Origin: Escherichia phage APCEc01
Reading direction: 5' to 3' (one strand)
Length of the DNA: 64,000 nt
Sequence record: NC_029091.1
Shown here: positions 5,770 through 55,783 of the stretch, piece by piece
Position numbering within the stretch: position 1 is the stretch's first letter
How the letters are laid out: each line of letters begins with the position of its first letter
Position numbers and translations under genes: made by a program
Notes under the pieces: generated by a model
Seen by the model: only the letters and a program-made list of their open reading frames with translations
Databases searched by the model: none
Told to the model about the DNA's origin: nothing

Positions 5770-5843
5770 GGCCCTGTAGCTCAATGGTTAGCAGCAGTCC
5801 CCTCATAAGGGAAAGGTTACCAGTTCGAATCTGGTCTGGGTCA
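5770..5843 (+). tRNA. tRNA with anticodon CAU (Met or Ile2/AUA-reading type)
   Basis: Hand fold: acceptor GGCCCTG/CTGGGTC (one U-U mismatch), T arm ACCAG-TTCGAAT-CTGGT, anticodon loop CTCATAA; no encoded CCA. Confidence 0.6.
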
Positions 5844-5849
5844 TATATT

Positions 5850-5926
<77 letters not shown>

Positions 5927-16144: not shown

Positions 16145-16405
16145 ATGAAAATGTATCAAGAATTTATCATTGAAGTAGATGCCAAAGACCCCAAATTTAA
16201 AGTTAAAGCTTTCATTGGTGATGCGGAAGACTTTGGCTCATTAAAACGTAATGGGTATTCTTTCTTGGGTGGCGATGGTAAAGAAATCAACACCTATGCA
16301 AAACGTAGTGAAATTGCTTATGTTGTAGTAAGTCCTAAAGTAGATGTTGACGATATTGGATACGATTTTAACAACTTCGGAATTATTTCTGGCGGTAAAG
16401 CTTAA
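16145..16405 (+). CDS. internal-protein-like protein with capsid targeting sequence
   Basis: ATG 16145; N-terminus MKMYQEFIIEV; 86 aa. Track start 16079 lies inside denV. Confidence 0.5.
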   Translation: MKMYQEFIIEVDAKDPKFKVKAFIGDAEDFGSLKRNGYSFLGGDGKEINTYAKRSEIAYVVVSPKVDVDDIGYDFNNFGIISGGKA

Positions 16406-16408
16406 ATT

Positions 16409-16445
16409 GTTTACGCTTAAGTATTAATATGGTATAATTACTCTA
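16409..16445 (+). promoter_or_regulatory. early promoter
   Basis: GTTTAC at 16409, TATAAT at 16434, CTCTATCAAAACAAACAAGG box. Confidence 0.5.
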
Positions 16446-16468
16446 TCAAAACAAACAAGGAAACAAAA

Positions 16469-16783
16469 ATGAAAACGTATAAAGAATTTATTGCAGAATC
16501 CGCCAACCAACGCGTTGAAGGTGGTTATATTTGGATTGAACAAGTTGAGCCACCGAGCCGCACTTCTACAGGTAAATGGAAAATTACTGTTGACGGTCCT
16601 GGCGGTAAACGTAGGACTCTTAAAGAAATTAACGGGTACTATGAAGAAGCTCTTTCGGATGCAGGAACTTACATGATGCAAATCATGATTAAAAACCCTG
16701 AAAACCGTTTTGCAGCTAAAGTCTTCCGTCGTATTGGTAATAAACTTTATGATGCATACTCTAAAAACTTCCCTAAAGAATAA
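16469..16783 (+). CDS. internal-protein-like protein with capsid targeting sequence
   Basis: N-terminus MKTYKEFIAES; 104 aa. Confidence 0.55.
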   Translation: MKTYKEFIAESANQRVEGGYIWIEQVEPPSRTSTGKWKITVDGPGGKRRTLKEINGYYEEALSDAGTYMMQIMIKNPENRFAAKVFRRIGNKLYDAYSKNFPKE

Positions 16784-16808
16784 CATAAATTAAAACAATA
16801 GGAACAAA

Positions 16809-17138
16809 ATGAAAACATATCAGGAGTTTATCACTGAAGTTACATTATCTGCGGAACAGAAAGCTGCTATCGAAGAAGGTAAAAATCCCAAAGTAACATA
16901 CAAAGTAAATAGTAAAGGCGTTTTTGATGGCTTGGTTCAAGACCCTGAATTGAAAAAAGCTCTTTCTAAAACTAATGCGTACTTTGCTCCTAAATTTAAC
17001 ACAGCCGGTGTACTTATTGGATTGGACGTATTCAACTCTAAAGGTGTTCTATCTAATGCCTTTGGTTATGCCGCTAACAAAATTACCAAAGCAGCATGGG
17101 AATCCAATACCAAACAAGCTCAAAAGCCTAGAGTATAA
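16809..17138 (+). CDS. internal-protein-like protein with capsid targeting sequence
   Basis: N-terminus MKTYQEFITEV; 109 aa. Confidence 0.55.
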   Translation: MKTYQEFITEVTLSAEQKAAIEEGKNPKVTYKVNSKGVFDGLVQDPELKKALSKTNAYFAPKFNTAGVLIGLDVFNSKGVLSNAFGYAANKITKAAWESNTKQAQKPRV

Positions 17139-17311
17139 TTCTTGCCTAATAAAGGGAAACGCAACCTCTCCTCATGAACGTCGAGTCCTCTGAGTGATGT
17201 ACCTTTTCCAACCTGTAATAAGGTCGAGCCCAAGTGCGGTAATGGGTTTACATAGCGAGTCGAAGGACCTAACATGTGCCACGGAATGGCCCAAACCTTA
17301 AGAGAAATAAT

Positions 17312-17851
17312 ATGAGAACATTTTTAACTGGACCTTATCTATCCCTGATGAATGCTTTTACACACCATTCTGATGCTAGAGTAGAAGAAATTTGTAAGAA
17401 CGGTTATGTCCCACCATTTGAAGACGTACTCAAGCAGTACTGTACACTTCGTTTAGACGGCGGCCGACAATCAGGTAAATCAATTGCTGTGACTAACTTT
17501 GCTGCTAATTGGCTGTATGATGGCGGAACAGTTATTGTTCTTTCTAATACTTCAGCTTATGCTAAAATTTCTGCTGGCAACATTGAAAAAGAATTTTCGC
17601 GTTATTCTAGCGACGATATTCGATTCCGTTTATTTACTGATTCTGTTCGTAGTTTTATTGGCAATGAAGGTTCTAAATTCCGTGGATTAACGCTTTCTCG
17701 TATTCTGTATATAATTGACGAGCCTATTAAAGCTCCTGATATGGATAAGATTTACAATGTACATATTAAAACAGTCCAACACTGTTGCAAAAGCAAATAT
17801 TGCATCGGCGGTAATGCTCGTCCTCAATTTTTTGTGATTGGAATGCAATGA
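17312..17851 (+). CDS. hypothetical protein with P-loop-like motif
   Basis: ATG 17312; 179 aa; GGRQSGKS Walker-A-like and YIIDE segments. Confidence 0.45.
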   Translation: MRTFLTGPYLSLMNAFTHHSDARVEEICKNGYVPPFEDVLKQYCTLRLDGGRQSGKSIAVTNFAANWLYDGGTVIVLSNTSAYAKISAGNIEKEFSRYSSDDIRFRLFTDSVRSFIGNEGSKFRGLTLSRILYIIDEPIKAPDMDKIYNVHIKTVQHCCKSKYCIGGNARPQFFVIGMQ

Positions 17852-18156
17852 TGACCACTATTGAAGTTTTTGAATATTGTTATAACAGCCCAGTATGCAA
17901 TAAAAGGGCCCTTGTAGAAAATTACGAGATTTACCATTTTAAACCTAAACGATACCGTTTGACTAAAGGTCCGTTCGCAGGGCAGCAGGTTCTTTGTACT
18001 GCTCCTAATGCACGGTTGATGACTAGTATTCCACATTTCAAAATGGAATTTATTGACGGGCCATTTAAGGGATTAATCACTCAAAGTTTAATGGCGTTTA
18101 ATTCCGACCCATTTTTGATTAAAGAAAAAACTTGGATAAATTTATTTTCTAATTGA
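17848..18156 (+). CDS. hypothetical protein
   Basis: 102 aa; ATGA overlap with upstream gene. Confidence 0.45.
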   Translation: MMTTIEVFEYCYNSPVCNKRALVENYEIYHFKPKRYRLTKGPFAGQQVLCTAPNARLMTSIPHFKMEFIDGPFKGLITQSLMAFNSDPFLIKEKTWINLFSN

Positions 18157-18162
18157 GGTTAT

Positions 18163-18525
18163 ATGAAAGCATATCAAATTCTTGAAGGCACACACAAAGG
18201 CACTATTTATTTTGAAGACGGTACTCAAGCCCGGATTATTGTCTCTAAGACTTTTAAAGAAGACGCTATTGTAGACCCGGAAATTTTCTACGGTTTGCAT
18301 GCCCGTGAAATTGAAATTGAACATCACCCTAAAGTTAAAATTGAAGGTGGTCAACATCTGAACGTTAACGTTCTGCGTCGTGAAACTCTAGAAGATGCAG
18401 TTAAGCATCCAGAAAAATATCCGCAGCTGACCATCCGTGTATCTGGTTATGCAGTTCGCTTTAACTCTCTGACTCCGGAACAGCAGCGCGACGTTATCGC
18501 TCGCACCTTTACTGAGAGTCTATAA
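18163..18525 (+). CDS. autonomous glycyl radical cofactor (GrcA/YfiD-like)
   Basis: C-terminus [32 protein letters not shown] carries the glycyl-radical RVSGYAV fingerprint; 120 aa. Confidence 0.75.
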
Positions 18526-33547: not shown

Positions 33548-34021
33548 ATGTTATTATCAGGCGCAAAATATAAAGAAGAAAAACAAAAATTTTATGATGC
33601 ACAGAACGGTAAGTGTCCTATTTGCCACCGTGAATTAGACCCTGATGTTCAAGGTAACCATCTTGACCACGACCACGAATTAAACGGGCCAAAAGCCGGT
33701 AGAGTTCGTGGATTACTCTGTAATCTGTGCAACGCAGCAGAAGGCCAAATGAAGCATAAGTTCAATCGTTCCGGTCTTAAAGGACGTGATGTTGACTACC
33801 TCGAATGGCTTGAAGCTCTTCTTGCTTATTTGAAACAAGATTATTCTGATAATAATATCCATCCTAATTTTGTTCCAGACAAAACTAAAGAGTTCTCAAG
33901 ACTAGGTAAAGAGGAAATGATGGCTGAGATGCTTCAAAGAGGATTTGAATATAATGAATCTGACACCAAAACACAGTTAATAGCTTCATTTAAGAAGCAG
34001 CTTAGAAAGAGTTTAAAATGA
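33548..34021 (+). CDS. 49: endonuclease VII (Holliday junction resolvase gp49)
   Basis: MLLSGAKYKEEKQKFYDAQNGKCPICHRELDPDVQGNHLDHDHELNGPKAG... matches T4 EndoVII including Zn-binding Cys; 157 aa. Confidence 0.88.
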   Translation: MLLSGAKYKEEKQKFYDAQNGKCPICHRELDPDVQGNHLDHDHELNGPKAGRVRGLLCNLCNAAEGQMKHKFNRSGLKGRDVDYLEWLEALLAYLKQDYSDNNIHPNFVPDKTKEFSRLGKEEMMAEMLQRGFEYNESDTKTQLIASFKKQLRKSLK

Positions 34022-35835
34022 CAATTGAAAAAGAAATTGAAGGATTGATTCATAAAACTAATAAAGACCTTTTAAACGAGAATGCTAATAAAGATTCTCG
34101 TGTTTTTCCAACTCAACGGGACCTTATGGCTGGTATTGTGTCTAAACACATTGCCAAAAATATGGTCCCGTCTTTTATTATGAAAGCACATGAAAGCGGA
34201 ATTATCCATTTCCACGATATTGATTATTCCCCTGCTCTTCCGTTTACTAATTGCTGTTTAGTCGATTTAAAGGGGATGCTTGAGAACGGATTTAAATTAG
34301 GCAATGCTCAAATTGAAACGCCTAAATCTATTGGCGTTGCTACTGCAATTATGGCACAAATTACTGCACAAGTTGCTTCCCATCAATACGGCGGAACGAC
34401 TTTTGCTAATGTAGATAAAGTACTTTCTCCTTATGTTAAACGCACCTATGCAAAACATATTGAGGATGCAGAAAAATGGCAAATCGCTGATGCGTTAAAT
34501 TATGCTCAATCTAAAACAGAAAAAGACGTATACGATGCATTCCAAGCTTATGAATATGAAGTAAATACTCTCTTTAGTTCAAACGGACAAACGCCTTTTG
34601 TAACAATTACATTTGGTACGGGAACTGACTGGACTGAACGAATGATTCAGAAAGCAATTCTGAAAAATCGTATTAAAGGTCTTGGTCGTGATGGGATAAC
34701 TCCTATTTTTCCTAAACTTGTTATGTTCGTTGAAGAAGGTGTTAATCTTTATAAAGACGATCCGAACTATGATATTAAGCAGCTTGCGTTAGAATGTGCA
34801 AGCAAAAGAATGTATCCTGACATTATTTCGGTTAAGAATAATAAAGCTATCACCGGCTCATCTATTCCTGTTTCTCCAATGGGTTGTCGTAGTTTCTTGA
34901 GTGCATGGAAAGATTCAACTGGAAATGAAATTCTTGACGGTCGTAATAATCTTGGCGTTGTAACACTGAATCTTCCTCGTATAGCATTAGATTCTTATAT
35001 TGGAACACAGTTCAATGAACAGAAATTTGTTGAGCTATTTAACGAACGAATGGACCTGTGTTTTGAAGCCTTGATGTGTAGAATTAGTTCCTTAAAAGGA
35101 GTTAAAGCGACTGTTGCTCCTATTCTTTACCAAGAAGGTGCATTCGGGGTTCGTCTTAAACCTGATGACGACATAATTGAGTTATTTAAAAACGGTAGAA
35201 GTTCAGTGTCTTTAGGATACATTGGTATTCACGAATTGAATATTCTTGTCGGTCGTGATATTGGGCAAGAAATTTTAACTAAAATGAATGCTCATCTTAA
35301 ACAGTGGTCCGAAAGAACTGGATTTGCTTTTAGTTTGTATTCTACTCCTGCTGAAAACCTTTGTTACAGCTTCTGTAAACTTGATACAGAAAAATATGGA
35401 AGTGTAAAGGATGTTACTGATAAAGGTTGGTACACTAATAGTTTCCATGTTTCAGTAGAAGAAAATATTACTCCGTTTGAAAAGATTTCTCGTGAAGCGC
35501 CATATCATTTCATAGCGACAGGTGGTCACATTTCTTATGTTGAACTTCCAGATATGAAAAACAATTTAAAGGGACTTGAGGCCGTCTGGGATTATGCTGC
35601 ACAACATTTAGATTATTTTGGTGTTAATATGCCAGTGGATAAATGTTTTACATGTGGAAGTACCCATGAAATGACTCCTACTGAAAACGGATTTGTTTGT
35701 TCTATTTGTGGAGAAACTGATCCTAAAAAGATGAACACAATAAGAAGAACATGTGGTTATTTGGGAAATCCGAACGAACGCGGATTTAATCTCGGTAAAA
35801 ATAAAGAAATCATGCATAGGGTTAAACACCAATGA
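34018..35835 (+). CDS. nrdD: anaerobic ribonucleoside-triphosphate reductase NrdD
   Basis: 605 aa; C-terminal Cys cluster CFTCGSTHEM...CSICG and glycine-radical region; continuous ORF (no intron). Confidence 0.9.
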   Translation: MTIEKEIEGLIHKTNKDLLNENANKDSRVFPTQRDLMAGIVSKHIAKNMVPSFIMKAHESGIIHFHDIDYSPALPFTNCCLVDLKGMLENGFKLGNAQIETPKSIGVATAIMAQITAQVASHQYGGTTFANVDKVLSPYVKRTYAKHIEDAEKWQIADALNYAQSKTEKDVYDAFQAYEYEVNTLFSSNGQTPFVTITFGTGTDWTERMIQKAILKNRIKGLGRDGITPIFPKLVMFVEEGVNLYKDDPNYDIKQLALECASKRMYPDIISVKNNKAITGSSIPVSPMGCRSFLSAWKDSTGNEILDGRNNLGVVTLNLPRIALDSYIGTQFNEQKFVELFNERMDLCFEALMCRISSLKGVKATVAPILYQEGAFGVRLKPDDDIIELFKNGRSSVSLGYIGIHELNILVGRDIGQEILTKMNAHLKQWSERTGFAFSLYSTPAENLCYSFCKLDTEKYGSVKDVTDKGWYTNSFHVSVEENITPFEKISREAPYHFIATGGHISYVELPDMKNNLKGLEAVWDYAAQHLDYFGVNMPVDKCFTCGSTHEMTPTENGFVCSICGETDPKKMNTIRRTCGYLGNPNERGFNLGKNKEIMHRVKHQ

Positions 35836-36302
35836 ATTATGATAGATTTTATCCTTGCGATTTTGTGAATGGCCCTGGATGCAGGGTCGTTCTTTTCGTT
35901 ACGGGTTGTTTGCATAAATGCGAAGGGTGTTATAATAAATCAACATGGAATGCTAGAAATGGTGTTCCATTCACTGGTGAAACACTAGAACAATTAATTG
36001 AATGTTTGAATAATGATTATATAGAAGGATTAACTATAACCGGAGGTGACCCTCTCTATCCTGATAACCGAGATGTTATTCATTGCATTGCTCAAACAGT
36101 AAAAAATCTTTATCCCAATAAAAGCATTTGGTTGTGGACAGGATATAAGTTTGAAGATATTAAACAACTAGAAATGCTTAAATATGTTGATGTTATTATT
36201 GATGGGAAGTATGAGAAAAATCTTCCGACTAAAAAGCTGTGGCGAGGATCAGATAATCAGCGACTTTGGTCAAATACCGATGGGGTGTGGAAACATGATT
36301 AA
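35832..36302 (+). CDS. nrdG: anaerobic ribonucleotide reductase activating protein NrdG (radical SAM)
   Basis: 156 aa; N-terminal Cys-rich radical SAM-type motif GCLHKCEGCYN; ATGA overlap with nrdD. Confidence 0.85.
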   Translation: MNYDRFYPCDFVNGPGCRVVLFVTGCLHKCEGCYNKSTWNARNGVPFTGETLEQLIECLNNDYIEGLTITGGDPLYPDNRDVIHCIAQTVKNLYPNKSIWLWTGYKFEDIKQLEMLKYVDVIIDGKYEKNLPTKKLWRGSDNQRLWSNTDGVWKHD

Positions 36303-53628: not shown

Positions 53629-54789
53629 ATGAATACTTTTAAAATCGGAACGAATTTTGATTTAGCTCTTCTTGATAAAATCGTAGAGCTCAATAAAACT
53701 TATCCTAATAGCTTGATAAATGAAGTATACGGCTCTACAAGAGAAATGGCTTTTGTAGCAGCCAGACCTGATTTTAGGCTTCCTGACGTTGACAAAAAGA
53801 TGTTAGAAGATTACGTTAAACGTTGTAACGAATTAGGTATTTGCTTTAACTATACACTCAACACGATAAATCCTGGTTCAAAAAGAGAACTAGTTGAGTG
53901 GAAGAAGAAAGCTATTCAGGATTATGTTCAGTATCTTTGGTCAATAGGCGTATGGCGTATTACTATCGCTAACCCTGTTGTTATGGAAATTGTTCGTGAA
54001 GTCAATAAAGACATTGAGATTGAAGTTTCAACAATTCTACATGTCGATGCTGTAACTCAAATCAAATACTTGCATGACCAATATAATATCAAAAAGGTCT
54101 GCTGTGGAATTCATAAGAACCGTTCAGTTTCTTTCCTGAAGCGTGCAGCAGAGTTTTGCAATAAGAACAATATAATATTTGAAGTTCTTGTAAATGAGTT
54201 CTGTTCTAATGCTGGTAAAGGGTATACAACACATTGTAGCTATCGTGACTCTTGCTATATTTTCCATAGTACTGATGTTACAGCTGATGATGCTAAATCC
54301 TTAAACGGATATCCTATGCAGCACTGTATTAAAGCTCGTGATACAGACCCATTTAACTGGTTGAGAACTCGTTTTGTTCGTCCTCAAGATTTGAAACTTT
54401 ATAATGATATTGGTATCACTCAATTCAAAGTTTCAGGACGTACAGGTAGCACAGACTACATTTTGAAAGTTCTTGAAGCATACGCTTCTGAAAAGTTTGA
54501 AGGTAATTTGTTAGAACTGTGGAAGCCTTTAGAGACTATTTTCACTCTTGAAAACGAAACTGAGTTTTCACATACAGTAAATATTGAAACCTCTTTGTTA
54601 GATGGCTTTTTAGAAAAAAGGTGGTTCAGACATCCAGATTTCGATTGTGCTAATGAAATCTGCGGGACGACGTGTACATATTGTGAAAGATATTATAAAC
54701 GTCAATTATCTAAAAACGGGTTAGCAGAAAACTCTATATCTATTATTGATATAACTAACTCTGATGACGCTTTGAGGTACCCGGAATGA
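53629..54789 (+). CDS. Cys-cluster enzyme of unknown function (possible U32-like/TIM-barrel or transferase)
   Basis: 386 aa; internal EFCSNAGKGYTTHCSYRDSCY and C-terminal CANEICGTTCTYCERYY Cys clusters; family not confidently recognised. Confidence 0.5.
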   Translation: MNTFKIGTNFDLALLDKIVELNKTYPNSLINEVYGSTREMAFVAARPDFRLPDVDKKMLEDYVKRCNELGICFNYTLNTINPGSKRELVEWKKKAIQDYVQYLWSIGVWRITIANPVVMEIVREVNKDIEIEVSTILHVDAVTQIKYLHDQYNIKKVCCGIHKNRSVSFLKRAAEFCNKNNIIFEVLVNEFCSNAGKGYTTHCSYRDSCYIFHSTDVTADDAKSLNGYPMQHCIKARDTDPFNWLRTRFVRPQDLKLYNDIGITQFKVSGRTGSTDYILKVLEAYASEKFEGNLLELWKPLETIFTLENETEFSHTVNIETSLLDGFLEKRWFRHPDFDCANEICGTTCTYCERYYKRQLSKNGLAENSISIIDITNSDDALRYPE

Positions 54790-55066: not shown

Positions 55067-55783
55067 ATGGGAAAACATAACACAATGAAATATATCAAAG
55101 CCGCAGATTTTCAAACCGCATTTAAAGCAGTCAATCGTGAAATTTTAGAAAACCCGGAATTCGTAACTGATTCTCGTATTGGACGTTGTAATGAAATTGG
55201 GTCTATGACAGTAGTTGTTGACACTCCATCATCATTCAAAATGACCGACCCACGTATTAACCGCATCTCTTATGAATATGCCGAAGACTTCTGGAAGTTT
55301 ATGATTTCTGGTGGTACCAACGCAGAAGAAGCGTTTAAGGCATATCCTAATGTCGCTAAATTTATTTCTAAACCAAAATCAGATGTTTTGCCGGCGAACT
55401 TCAACACTTTCTATGGTCCTCGCATTGCGGCTCAATTACCAGCTCTTCTAAAAGAACTTAAAGAGAAGCCTAACTCCCGAAGAGTTGTGTTCCAAATTCT
55501 AGAAAGTTCTGATCAGGCTTTGCTTGATTCGGACGAAACGCTTGAATATCCATGTACTGACTCAGTGACTTATTATATTCGTGATGGTAAGCTTTATACC
55601 CACTGTCATATGCGTTCTCAGAACTGTGCTGTTGTTATGCAGTTGGATTTTTATCTCCAAGGAAAATTACTTCATTATATCGCTAACGAATGTGGTGTAG
55701 AAGTTGGTGATTATACTCATACCATGGTAAGTGCCCATGTGTTTGAACGTGATTTTGATTATGTTAAAGGATTCCTTGACTAA
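55067..55783 (+). CDS. 42: dCMP hydroxymethylase gp42 (thymidylate-synthase fold)
   Basis: 238 aa; TS-family landmarks SRRVVFQ, nucleophile PCTD, MRSQNCAVVMQLDF, SAHVF; only TS-like gene here; position between 43 and uvsX as in T4. Confidence 0.7.
   Translation: MGKHNTMKYIKAADFQTAFKAVNREILENPEFVTDSRIGRCNEIGSMTVVVDTPSSFKMTDPRINRISYEYAEDFWKFMISGGTNAEEAFKAYPNVAKFISKPKSDVLPANFNTFYGPRIAAQLPALLKELKEKPNSRRVVFQILESSDQALLDSDETLEYPCTDSVTYYIRDGKLYTHCHMRSQNCAVVMQLDFYLQGKLLHYIANECGVEVGDYTHTMVSAHVFERDFDYVKGFLD

Follow-up and report, generated by a model that had tools for sequence, protein, structure and literature searches.

As summarized in PMC8683613, Wagner et al. 2001 (BBRC 285:456) found that PFL-AE activates both YfiD and the T4 protein Y06I. 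Once it bears the radical, either protein forms a complex with oxygen-cleaved pyruvate formate-lyase (PFL), and activity is regained (PMC8683613; PMC13450708). The Drennan laboratory counts Y06I and YfiD as the sole validated spare-part proteins so far (PMC8683613; PMC13450708). YfiD's N-terminal half is disordered, yet it is required for the protein to bind cleaved PFL measurably and to receive its radical efficiently. Truncated YfiD without this half is still catalytically competent after activation (PMC8683613). Among phages, vs.6 was described as a conserved Gly_radical ORF in six of six T4-like genomes (Nolan et al. 2006, PMC1524935), and RefSeq names the vs.6 products of RB69 and T4 'autonomous glycyl radical cofactor GrcA'.

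In this study, we analyzed a window of 64,000 nucleotides from Escherichia phage APCEc01 (NC_029091.1). The ORF at 18163..18525 on the plus strand was identified as the CDS of vs.6, a phage autonomous glycyl radical cofactor of the GrcA/YfiD type, from the ORF list, the Pfam Gly_radical model and PDB entry 6owr. The identity of this protein is already known from the RefSeq annotation and from the T4 ortholog characterized in 2001. Biochemistry is available for T4 Y06I, and the window allele is known from its sequence.

The vs.6 gene and its product

The 2.6 kb around the gene had an identity of 99.5% to Shigella phage JK45 and of 98.2% to RB69, and these comparisons assign the window to Mosigvirus (Straboviridae), as an RB69-type T4-like coliphage. 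The gene order was that of RB69 and T4: vs.8, vs.7, vs.6, vs.5, vs.4, one ORF, regB, vs.1 and vs. In the window, regB matched Pfam REGB_T4 with 232 bits and vs.1 was SLT-like. The order vs.8-vs.7-vs.6-vs.5 upstream of regB was also found in Klebsiella phage pKp20. Since synteny and gene order are common to the window, RB69 and T4, the ORF is vs.6, and since T4 has one GrcA-like gene, it is the ortholog of Y06I of Wagner et al. 2001. The protein was identical to that of JK42 (100%) and close to the vs.6 proteins of RB69 (95.8%) and T4 (94.2%; 113/120). T4 Y06I has the same position, the same length of 120 aa and the same mosaic with an E. coli-type 3' half. Seven substitutions separate the two proteins, and six of them lie in the N-terminal half; at the seventh, the window has Arg73, as in E. 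coli GrcA, whereas T4 has His. A tblastn search with the window protein matched 1,587 phage records, and 1,529 of these had an intact full-length homolog at a coverage of at least 80%. The carriers were T4-like phages (of Escherichia, Klebsiella, Enterobacter, Cronobacter and Aeromonas), T5-like phages, Krischvirus and jumbo phages. The profile phrog_1209 (PHROG 1209) matched vs.6 with 210 bits over residues 1-120 of 121 profile positions.

As read from the sequence, the ORF is uninterrupted, with an ATG start, 120 codons and a TAA stop, and it encodes a protein of 120 aa and 13.8 kDa with no Cys. A GAGG Shine-Dalgarno sequence (18155..18158, plus strand) lies 4 nt upstream of the ATG and overlaps the TGA stop of vs.7 (18154-18156), and the TAA of vs.6 overlaps the ATG of the next gene. 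Sigma-70-like sites around vs.6 were found at chance level (8 found, 8.9 expected), and neither a late promoter TATAAATA nor a convincing MotA box was present within 16300-18400. A single weak terminator-like site near vs.6 was located inside vs.8. Because no promoter could be assigned, the timing of vs.6 expression was judged from the early-region context alone. The position in an early-gene cluster of a virulent phage differs from that of E. coli grcA, which lies between ung and eamB under host anaerobic control.

We then examined the C-terminal half. The RVSGYAVRF glycine-radical fingerprint was found at aa 92-100 (18436..18462, plus strand), by pattern match and in invariant or near-invariant alignment columns. 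The PROSITE-style pattern [STIV]-x-R-[IVT]-[CSA]-G-Y-x-[GACV] matched TIRVSGYAV in the protein. From this pattern, the structure matches and the alignment, Gly95 (codon GGT, 18445..18447, plus strand) is predicted to carry the radical and corresponds to G102 in YfiD and G734 in PflB. The similarity goes well beyond a motif found by chance: Pfam Gly_radical matched with 67.3 bits (E 2e-18) over the last ~42 model positions. The best PDB match was E. coli GrcA (6owr; E 3.5e-42), followed by PflB (E 6.7e-27), and BLASTP against E. coli GrcA gave 74/100 identities (E 1e-52). Residues 61-120 were 100% identical to the glycyl radical domain of E. coli GrcA, and 48 of these 60 residues were shared with PflB 700-759. 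Gly95 and most of the loop were invariant in 19 homologs (12 from phages and 7 from bacteria). These results bear on an initial annotation of the ORF. The fingerprint that it had placed near the C-terminus is there and fits the classical pattern, and its description of a GrcA/YfiD-like protein agrees with homology over the full length and with the identity of the last 60 residues to E. coli GrcA. Gly95 was kept throughout the alignment of homologs, so that the loss of the glycine, which would have refuted that annotation, was not seen. Its statement that T4 encodes a YfiD homolog is borne out by Y06I (vs.6), which is activated by PFL-AE and rescues cleaved PFL (Wagner et al. 2001, as summarized in PMC8683613).

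The C-terminal glycyl radical domain of PflB (PDB 1h16, 693-759), which is the piece that a spare part replaces, was identical at 50 of 67 positions, including the RVSGYAVRF loop. Unlike PflB, the vs.6 protein is without the ~690-residue catalytic barrel and the Cys418/Cys419 pair, which leaves a cofactor module only. Because it has no Cys, the protein cannot be a catalytic glycyl radical enzyme alone.

The vs.6 protein was also compared with the GrcA family. It has the small stand-alone size, the cofactor-only architecture and the PFL-type radical domain of this family, and its best NCBIfam family was TIGR04365 'spare_glycyl' (E 9e-47), which led by 50 bits. The TIGR04365 score of 158.5 bits (residues 18-120) was below the curated cutoff of 170, which is an annotation threshold for the bacterial equivalog and not a functional criterion; E. 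coli GrcA scored 233.9. The lower score is due to the diverged N-terminal half, in which the first ~17 residues and much else are off the model. We therefore class the protein, by these profile matches, as a phage-lineage member of the GrcA family below the bacterial equivalog threshold. E. coli GrcA/YfiD (6owr, TIGR04365) is likewise a small stand-alone protein, with a homologous N-terminal half and identical C-terminal 60 residues that include the radical Gly. The vs.6 protein is seven residues shorter, and its first ~20 residues could not be aligned by BLAST.

The BLAST alignment to E. coli GrcA began at residue 22, and its N-terminal part was identical at 14 of 40 positions. The N-terminal half is nevertheless homologous to that of bacterial GrcA, with Q5, K29, D34 and R48 (window numbering) conserved. 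A motif near the N-terminus (within 18163-18222) was kept in the T4-like, T5-like, Krischvirus and jumbo-phage copies and differed from the bacterial form. For the 5' half of the gene, comparison of the window with T4 gave a dN/dS of ~0.13, and comparison with pKp20 gave ~0.11. These comparisons indicate that the N-terminal half, the part thought to recognize cleaved PFL, has a phage-specific form, and that the 5' half is under purifying selection among phages.

Mosaic structure of vs.6 and bacterial grcA

When vs.6 was searched by blastn against 5,426 complete E. coli genomes, its 3' half alone (gene nt 179-363) was matched, at 95.7% and to grcA in every genome. Over the last 183 nt, identity to E. 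coli grcA was 95.6% for the window, 97.3% for RB69 and 98.4% for T4. In the same stretch, the bacterial grcA genes of Citrobacter (92.9%), K. pneumoniae (88.5%) and Salmonella (84.2%) were less similar to that of E. coli. In 15-nt bins, identity jumped from 7-10/15 to 14-15/15 at gene nt 180/181, between AAAATT and GAAGGTGG. At this breakpoint the structured domain begins with its first codon, and the place where homology ends fixes the left end of the tract. The AT-rich 5' half had a GC content of 0.33-0.37, against 0.47-0.49 for the 3' half. In its last three codons (GAG AGT CTA), the gene agreed with the Slopekvirus and Pseudotevenvirus copies and not with E. coli, so that the host-type segment is an internal patch of roughly nt 181-348.

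The gene can accordingly be divided into a 5' half of phage-lineage DNA (18163..18342, plus strand), delimited by the bins and alignments and by dN/dS, and a putative host-derived tract (18343..18510, plus strand; gene nt 181-348; GC 0.47) that encodes the glycyl radical domain. Within this tract, 163 of 168 nt (97.0%) were identical to E. coli grcA in the window, compared with 166/168 in RB69 and 167/168 (99.4%) in T4, and the window tract was closer to E. coli grcA than Citrobacter grcA is. The tract has thus drifted further in the window (5 differences in 168 nt) than in T4 (1 in 168). In its 3' half, the window gene differed from E. coli at eight nucleotides, all of them synonymous changes and six of them toward A or T. 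Because none of the 5,426 E. coli genomes exceeded 95.7%, the extra differences in the window tract are attributed to drift, mostly toward A/T.

We next considered Klebsiella phages. The grcA genes of Klebsiella were taken from chromosome-sized or chromosome-derived records labelled as plasmids, that of K. pneumoniae from strain 176 (the 5.37-Mb 'plasmid unnamed2'). In the 'plasmid 2' record of K. aerogenes NCTC10006 (300-700 of the region examined), grcA was annotated as shortened, with an apparent frameshift just before the radical loop; this is probably an assembly error. In pKp20 (Jiaodavirus), vs.6 has the same position and a phage-type 5' half (dS 1.75 and dN 0.20 relative to the window). 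Its nt 181-306 matched K. pneumoniae grcA at 124 of 126 positions and E. coli grcA at 106 of 126. At the 21 sites that differ between the two host genes, the window and T4 were of E. coli type throughout (21/21) and RB69 at 20, whereas the first 18 of these sites in pKp20 were, consecutively, of K. pneumoniae type.

The same pattern was found in a wider census. Matches of at least 95% to E. coli grcA occurred in 637 phage records, from Escherichia and Shigella phages and related tequatro-/mosigviruses, and matches of 95-99% to K. pneumoniae grcA occurred in 106 records, from Klebsiella phages. All phage alignments to the E. coli and K. pneumoniae genes began at grcA nt 199-202. The grcA genes of Salmonella, Enterobacter and Citrobacter had no match of at least 95% among the phage records, and no recent host tract was found in the Slopekvirus, Karamvirus, Pseudotevenvirus, T5-like, Krischvirus, Aeromonas and jumbo-phage copies. 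The domain encoded by the Slopekvirus copy was identical in protein to K. pneumoniae GrcA, and that of Cronobacter phage leB (Slopekvirus-related) was identical to the E. coli type, with synonymous sites saturated in both. These two agreements may be a weak hint of host matching, in a domain that is near-invariant in bacteria.

The direction of transfer is read as host to phage because bacterial grcA follows the species tree and host GC, and the 5' halves and flanks follow phage descent. The simplest reading of these sequences is that vs.6 is an old gene of the phages and that gene conversion from the host chromosome has replaced its domain-coding half at least twice. More specifically, homologous recombination may have overwritten the radical half, at least two separate times, with grcA of the genus that the phage now infects, with the Escherichia type in tequatro-/mosigviruses and the K. 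pneumoniae type in jiaodaviruses, and with the same left breakpoint at the boundary between the disordered and structured parts. We consider this account somewhat better than an even chance.

Zeidner et al. in 2005 and Sullivan et al. in 2006 reportedly described intragenic host-phage recombination in cyanophage psbA. Like vs.6, psbA is a host-derived metabolic gene in T4-like virulent phages, with host-type patches inside a phage-type gene. vs.6 would differ from that system in its one sharp common left boundary, which lies at a protein domain boundary, and in its 97-99% identity to the current host genus.

No description of a host-phage mosaic in vs.6/grcA was found in the full-text literature searched. 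Wagner 2001 and the 2003 review of the T4 genome (PMC150520) lie outside that literature and may hold a prior notice, and the novelty of the observation is uncertain. If the replacement is recurrent and selected, it would keep the spare part matched to host PflB and PflA. If it is true, the tract would also be a clean marker by which host-to-virulent-phage gene conversion could be counted in phages that degrade the DNA of their host. The mosaic thus offers a handle on two questions, the rate of recombination between virulent phages and the host chromosome and the need for a match between spare part and host enzyme.

The nrdD/nrdG genes and the proposed role of vs.6

The initial annotation had placed the GrcA-like gene next to nrdD/nrdG. 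Both genes are present at 34018..36302, on the plus strand and preceded by gene 49. nrdD (34018..35835) encodes a class III (anaerobic) ribonucleotide reductase (Pfam NRDD, 568 bits, and Gly_radical), and nrdG (35832..36302) encodes its radical-SAM activase (Pfam Fer4_12 and Radical_SAM). However, they are 15.5 kb downstream of vs.6, a distance that holds 34 annotated genes in RB69, so 'next to' is incorrect here. The 'adaptation to anaerobic gut hosts' drawn from this gene set is a conclusion that goes beyond the sequence. NrdD, outside the vs.6 locus, gives the phage a second glycyl radical enzyme, one that consumes formate. In a motif scan of ORFs of at least 80 aa, NrdG was the sole CX3CX2C radical-SAM-type activase in the window. 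The scan matched NrdG and one other ORF, and it found no PflA-like activase.

A grcA-like gene was found closer to nrdD in two unrelated large phages. In Salmonella jumbo phage PHA46 (1177-3824 of the region examined) it lies between nrdD and nrdG, and in Aeromonas phage phiAS5 (376-3944 of the region examined) its place is after nrdG and before nrdC and nrdH. The loop of both copies is still of PFL type. The class III ribonucleotide reductases that have been characterized use formate as their reductant (Mulliez et al. 1995, cited in PMC4493059). This gives a rational link between vs.6 and nrdD/nrdG, which would fit the adjacency in PHA46 and phiAS5.

The evidence in hand, namely homology, the intact radical motif, the identity of the docking domain to that of E. 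coli GrcA and orthology to T4 Y06I, makes it very probable that the vs.6 protein is a spare part for host pyruvate formate-lyase, PflB. The points that count against this role are the TIGR04365 score below the cutoff, the 14/40 identity of the N-terminal part, the absence of linkage to nrdD/nrdG and the lack of an assignable promoter. By analogy, the window allele would act as T4 Y06I does. The 14-kDa protein would be made after infection from the early-region cluster vs.8-vs.7-vs.6-vs.5, and the host radical-SAM activase PflA would put the radical on Gly95. When oxygen has cut host PflB at Gly734, the phage protein would dock with its C-terminal 60-residue domain in place of the lost piece, and the repaired PflB would again turn pyruvate into acetyl-CoA and formate. 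T4-type infection halts host gene expression. Because this shutoff prevents replenishment of PflB or host GrcA, we infer that the phage needs its own copy. The pay-off may be that production of ATP and acetyl-CoA is sustained, with formate for the phage NrdD, in a microaerobic infection. During evolution, the domain-coding half may have been overwritten by host grcA through homologous recombination. What the phage gains, and with it the formate link, we infer entirely, and the literature searched held neither a vs.6 mutant phenotype or in vivo benefit nor a test of the PFL-formate-NrdD link. The gene, present in more than 1,500 phage genomes, is a reminder that a part for the repair of a host fermentation enzyme is carried by T4-type phages.

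We also weighed whether the vs.6 protein serves the phage NrdD instead, by replacing a C-terminal fragment lost to oxygen from that enzyme and not from host PFL. Since both proteins match Pfam Gly_radical, Nolan et al. 2006 proposed a role in nucleotide metabolism for vs.6 (PMC1524935), and the grcA-like genes inside or beside the nrdD-nrdG clusters of PHA46 and phiAS5 point the same way. However, BLASTP detected no similarity between vs.6 and the NrdD of the window (best E = 10), and the loop of vs.6 is of PFL type whereas that of NrdD is RRTCGYLGNP. A spare part for NrdD was rejected on these two results. The absence of Cys from vs.6, the 100% identity of its domain to E. coli GrcA and the agreement of 48 of 60 residues with PflB also argue against it, and even the nrdD-linked copies of PHA46 and phiAS5 still have the PFL-type motif. 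We regard this explanation as very improbable.

A decoy or inhibitor is another explanation, in which the host-identical domain titrates PflA or occupies PflB, the N-terminal half blocks repair, and host fermentation is shut down or redirected. It would accord with the strong divergence (14/40, below the TIGR04365 cutoff) of the half that in YfiD governs binding of cleaved PFL and the efficiency of activation, and with the retention of a phage-specific N-terminal form across distant phages. It is nonetheless unlikely to a high degree, as the T4 ortholog, which differs at 7 of 120 residues, restored PFL in vitro (Wagner 2001, as cited in PMC8683613), and YfiD truncated of its N-terminal half was catalytically competent after activation (PMC8683613). 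The 95.6-98.4% identity of the 3' 168-183 nt to E. coli grcA and their host-like GC could also suggest a functionless, recently captured passenger fragment of the host gene. This has a negligible probability and is already effectively refuted: more than 1,500 phage genomes from several families carry vs.6 intact, at full length and in a fixed syntenic position, the changes in its 3' half are all synonymous, its 5' half is phage-lineage DNA under purifying selection, and the T4 protein is active (PMC8683613).

Minor features of the window

Two adjoining tRNA genes (5770-5843 and 5850-5923, plus strand) were the sole Rfam matches across the whole window at the gathering threshold. Between an unnamed ORF and vs.8, the intergenic stretch 17139..17312 had a GC content of 0.44-0.49, compared with ~0.36 nearby, and contained a weak sigma-70-like site at 17247-17275. 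It was rejected as a structured RNA, since its fold was no better than that of shuffled sequences (z = +1.5) and it had no Rfam match.

The ORF at 53629..54789 (plus strand) was set aside as a radical-SAM activase, being a Peptidase_U32-family protein instead. It encodes 386 aa with a C-terminal CGTTCTYC cysteine cluster and has matches in 220 phage records; the one in Serratia phage LC53 fell at a gene annotated with a chorismate mutase domain. The ORF lies just upstream of a thymidylate-synthase-fold ORF (55067-55783), which is 'similar to dCMP hydroxymethylase' in RB69. Bacterial U32 proteins are prephenate-dependent, oxygen-independent hydroxylases. The U32 ORF may encode a further enzyme able to work anaerobically, possibly one linked to the unusual way in which RB69-type phages modify their DNA.
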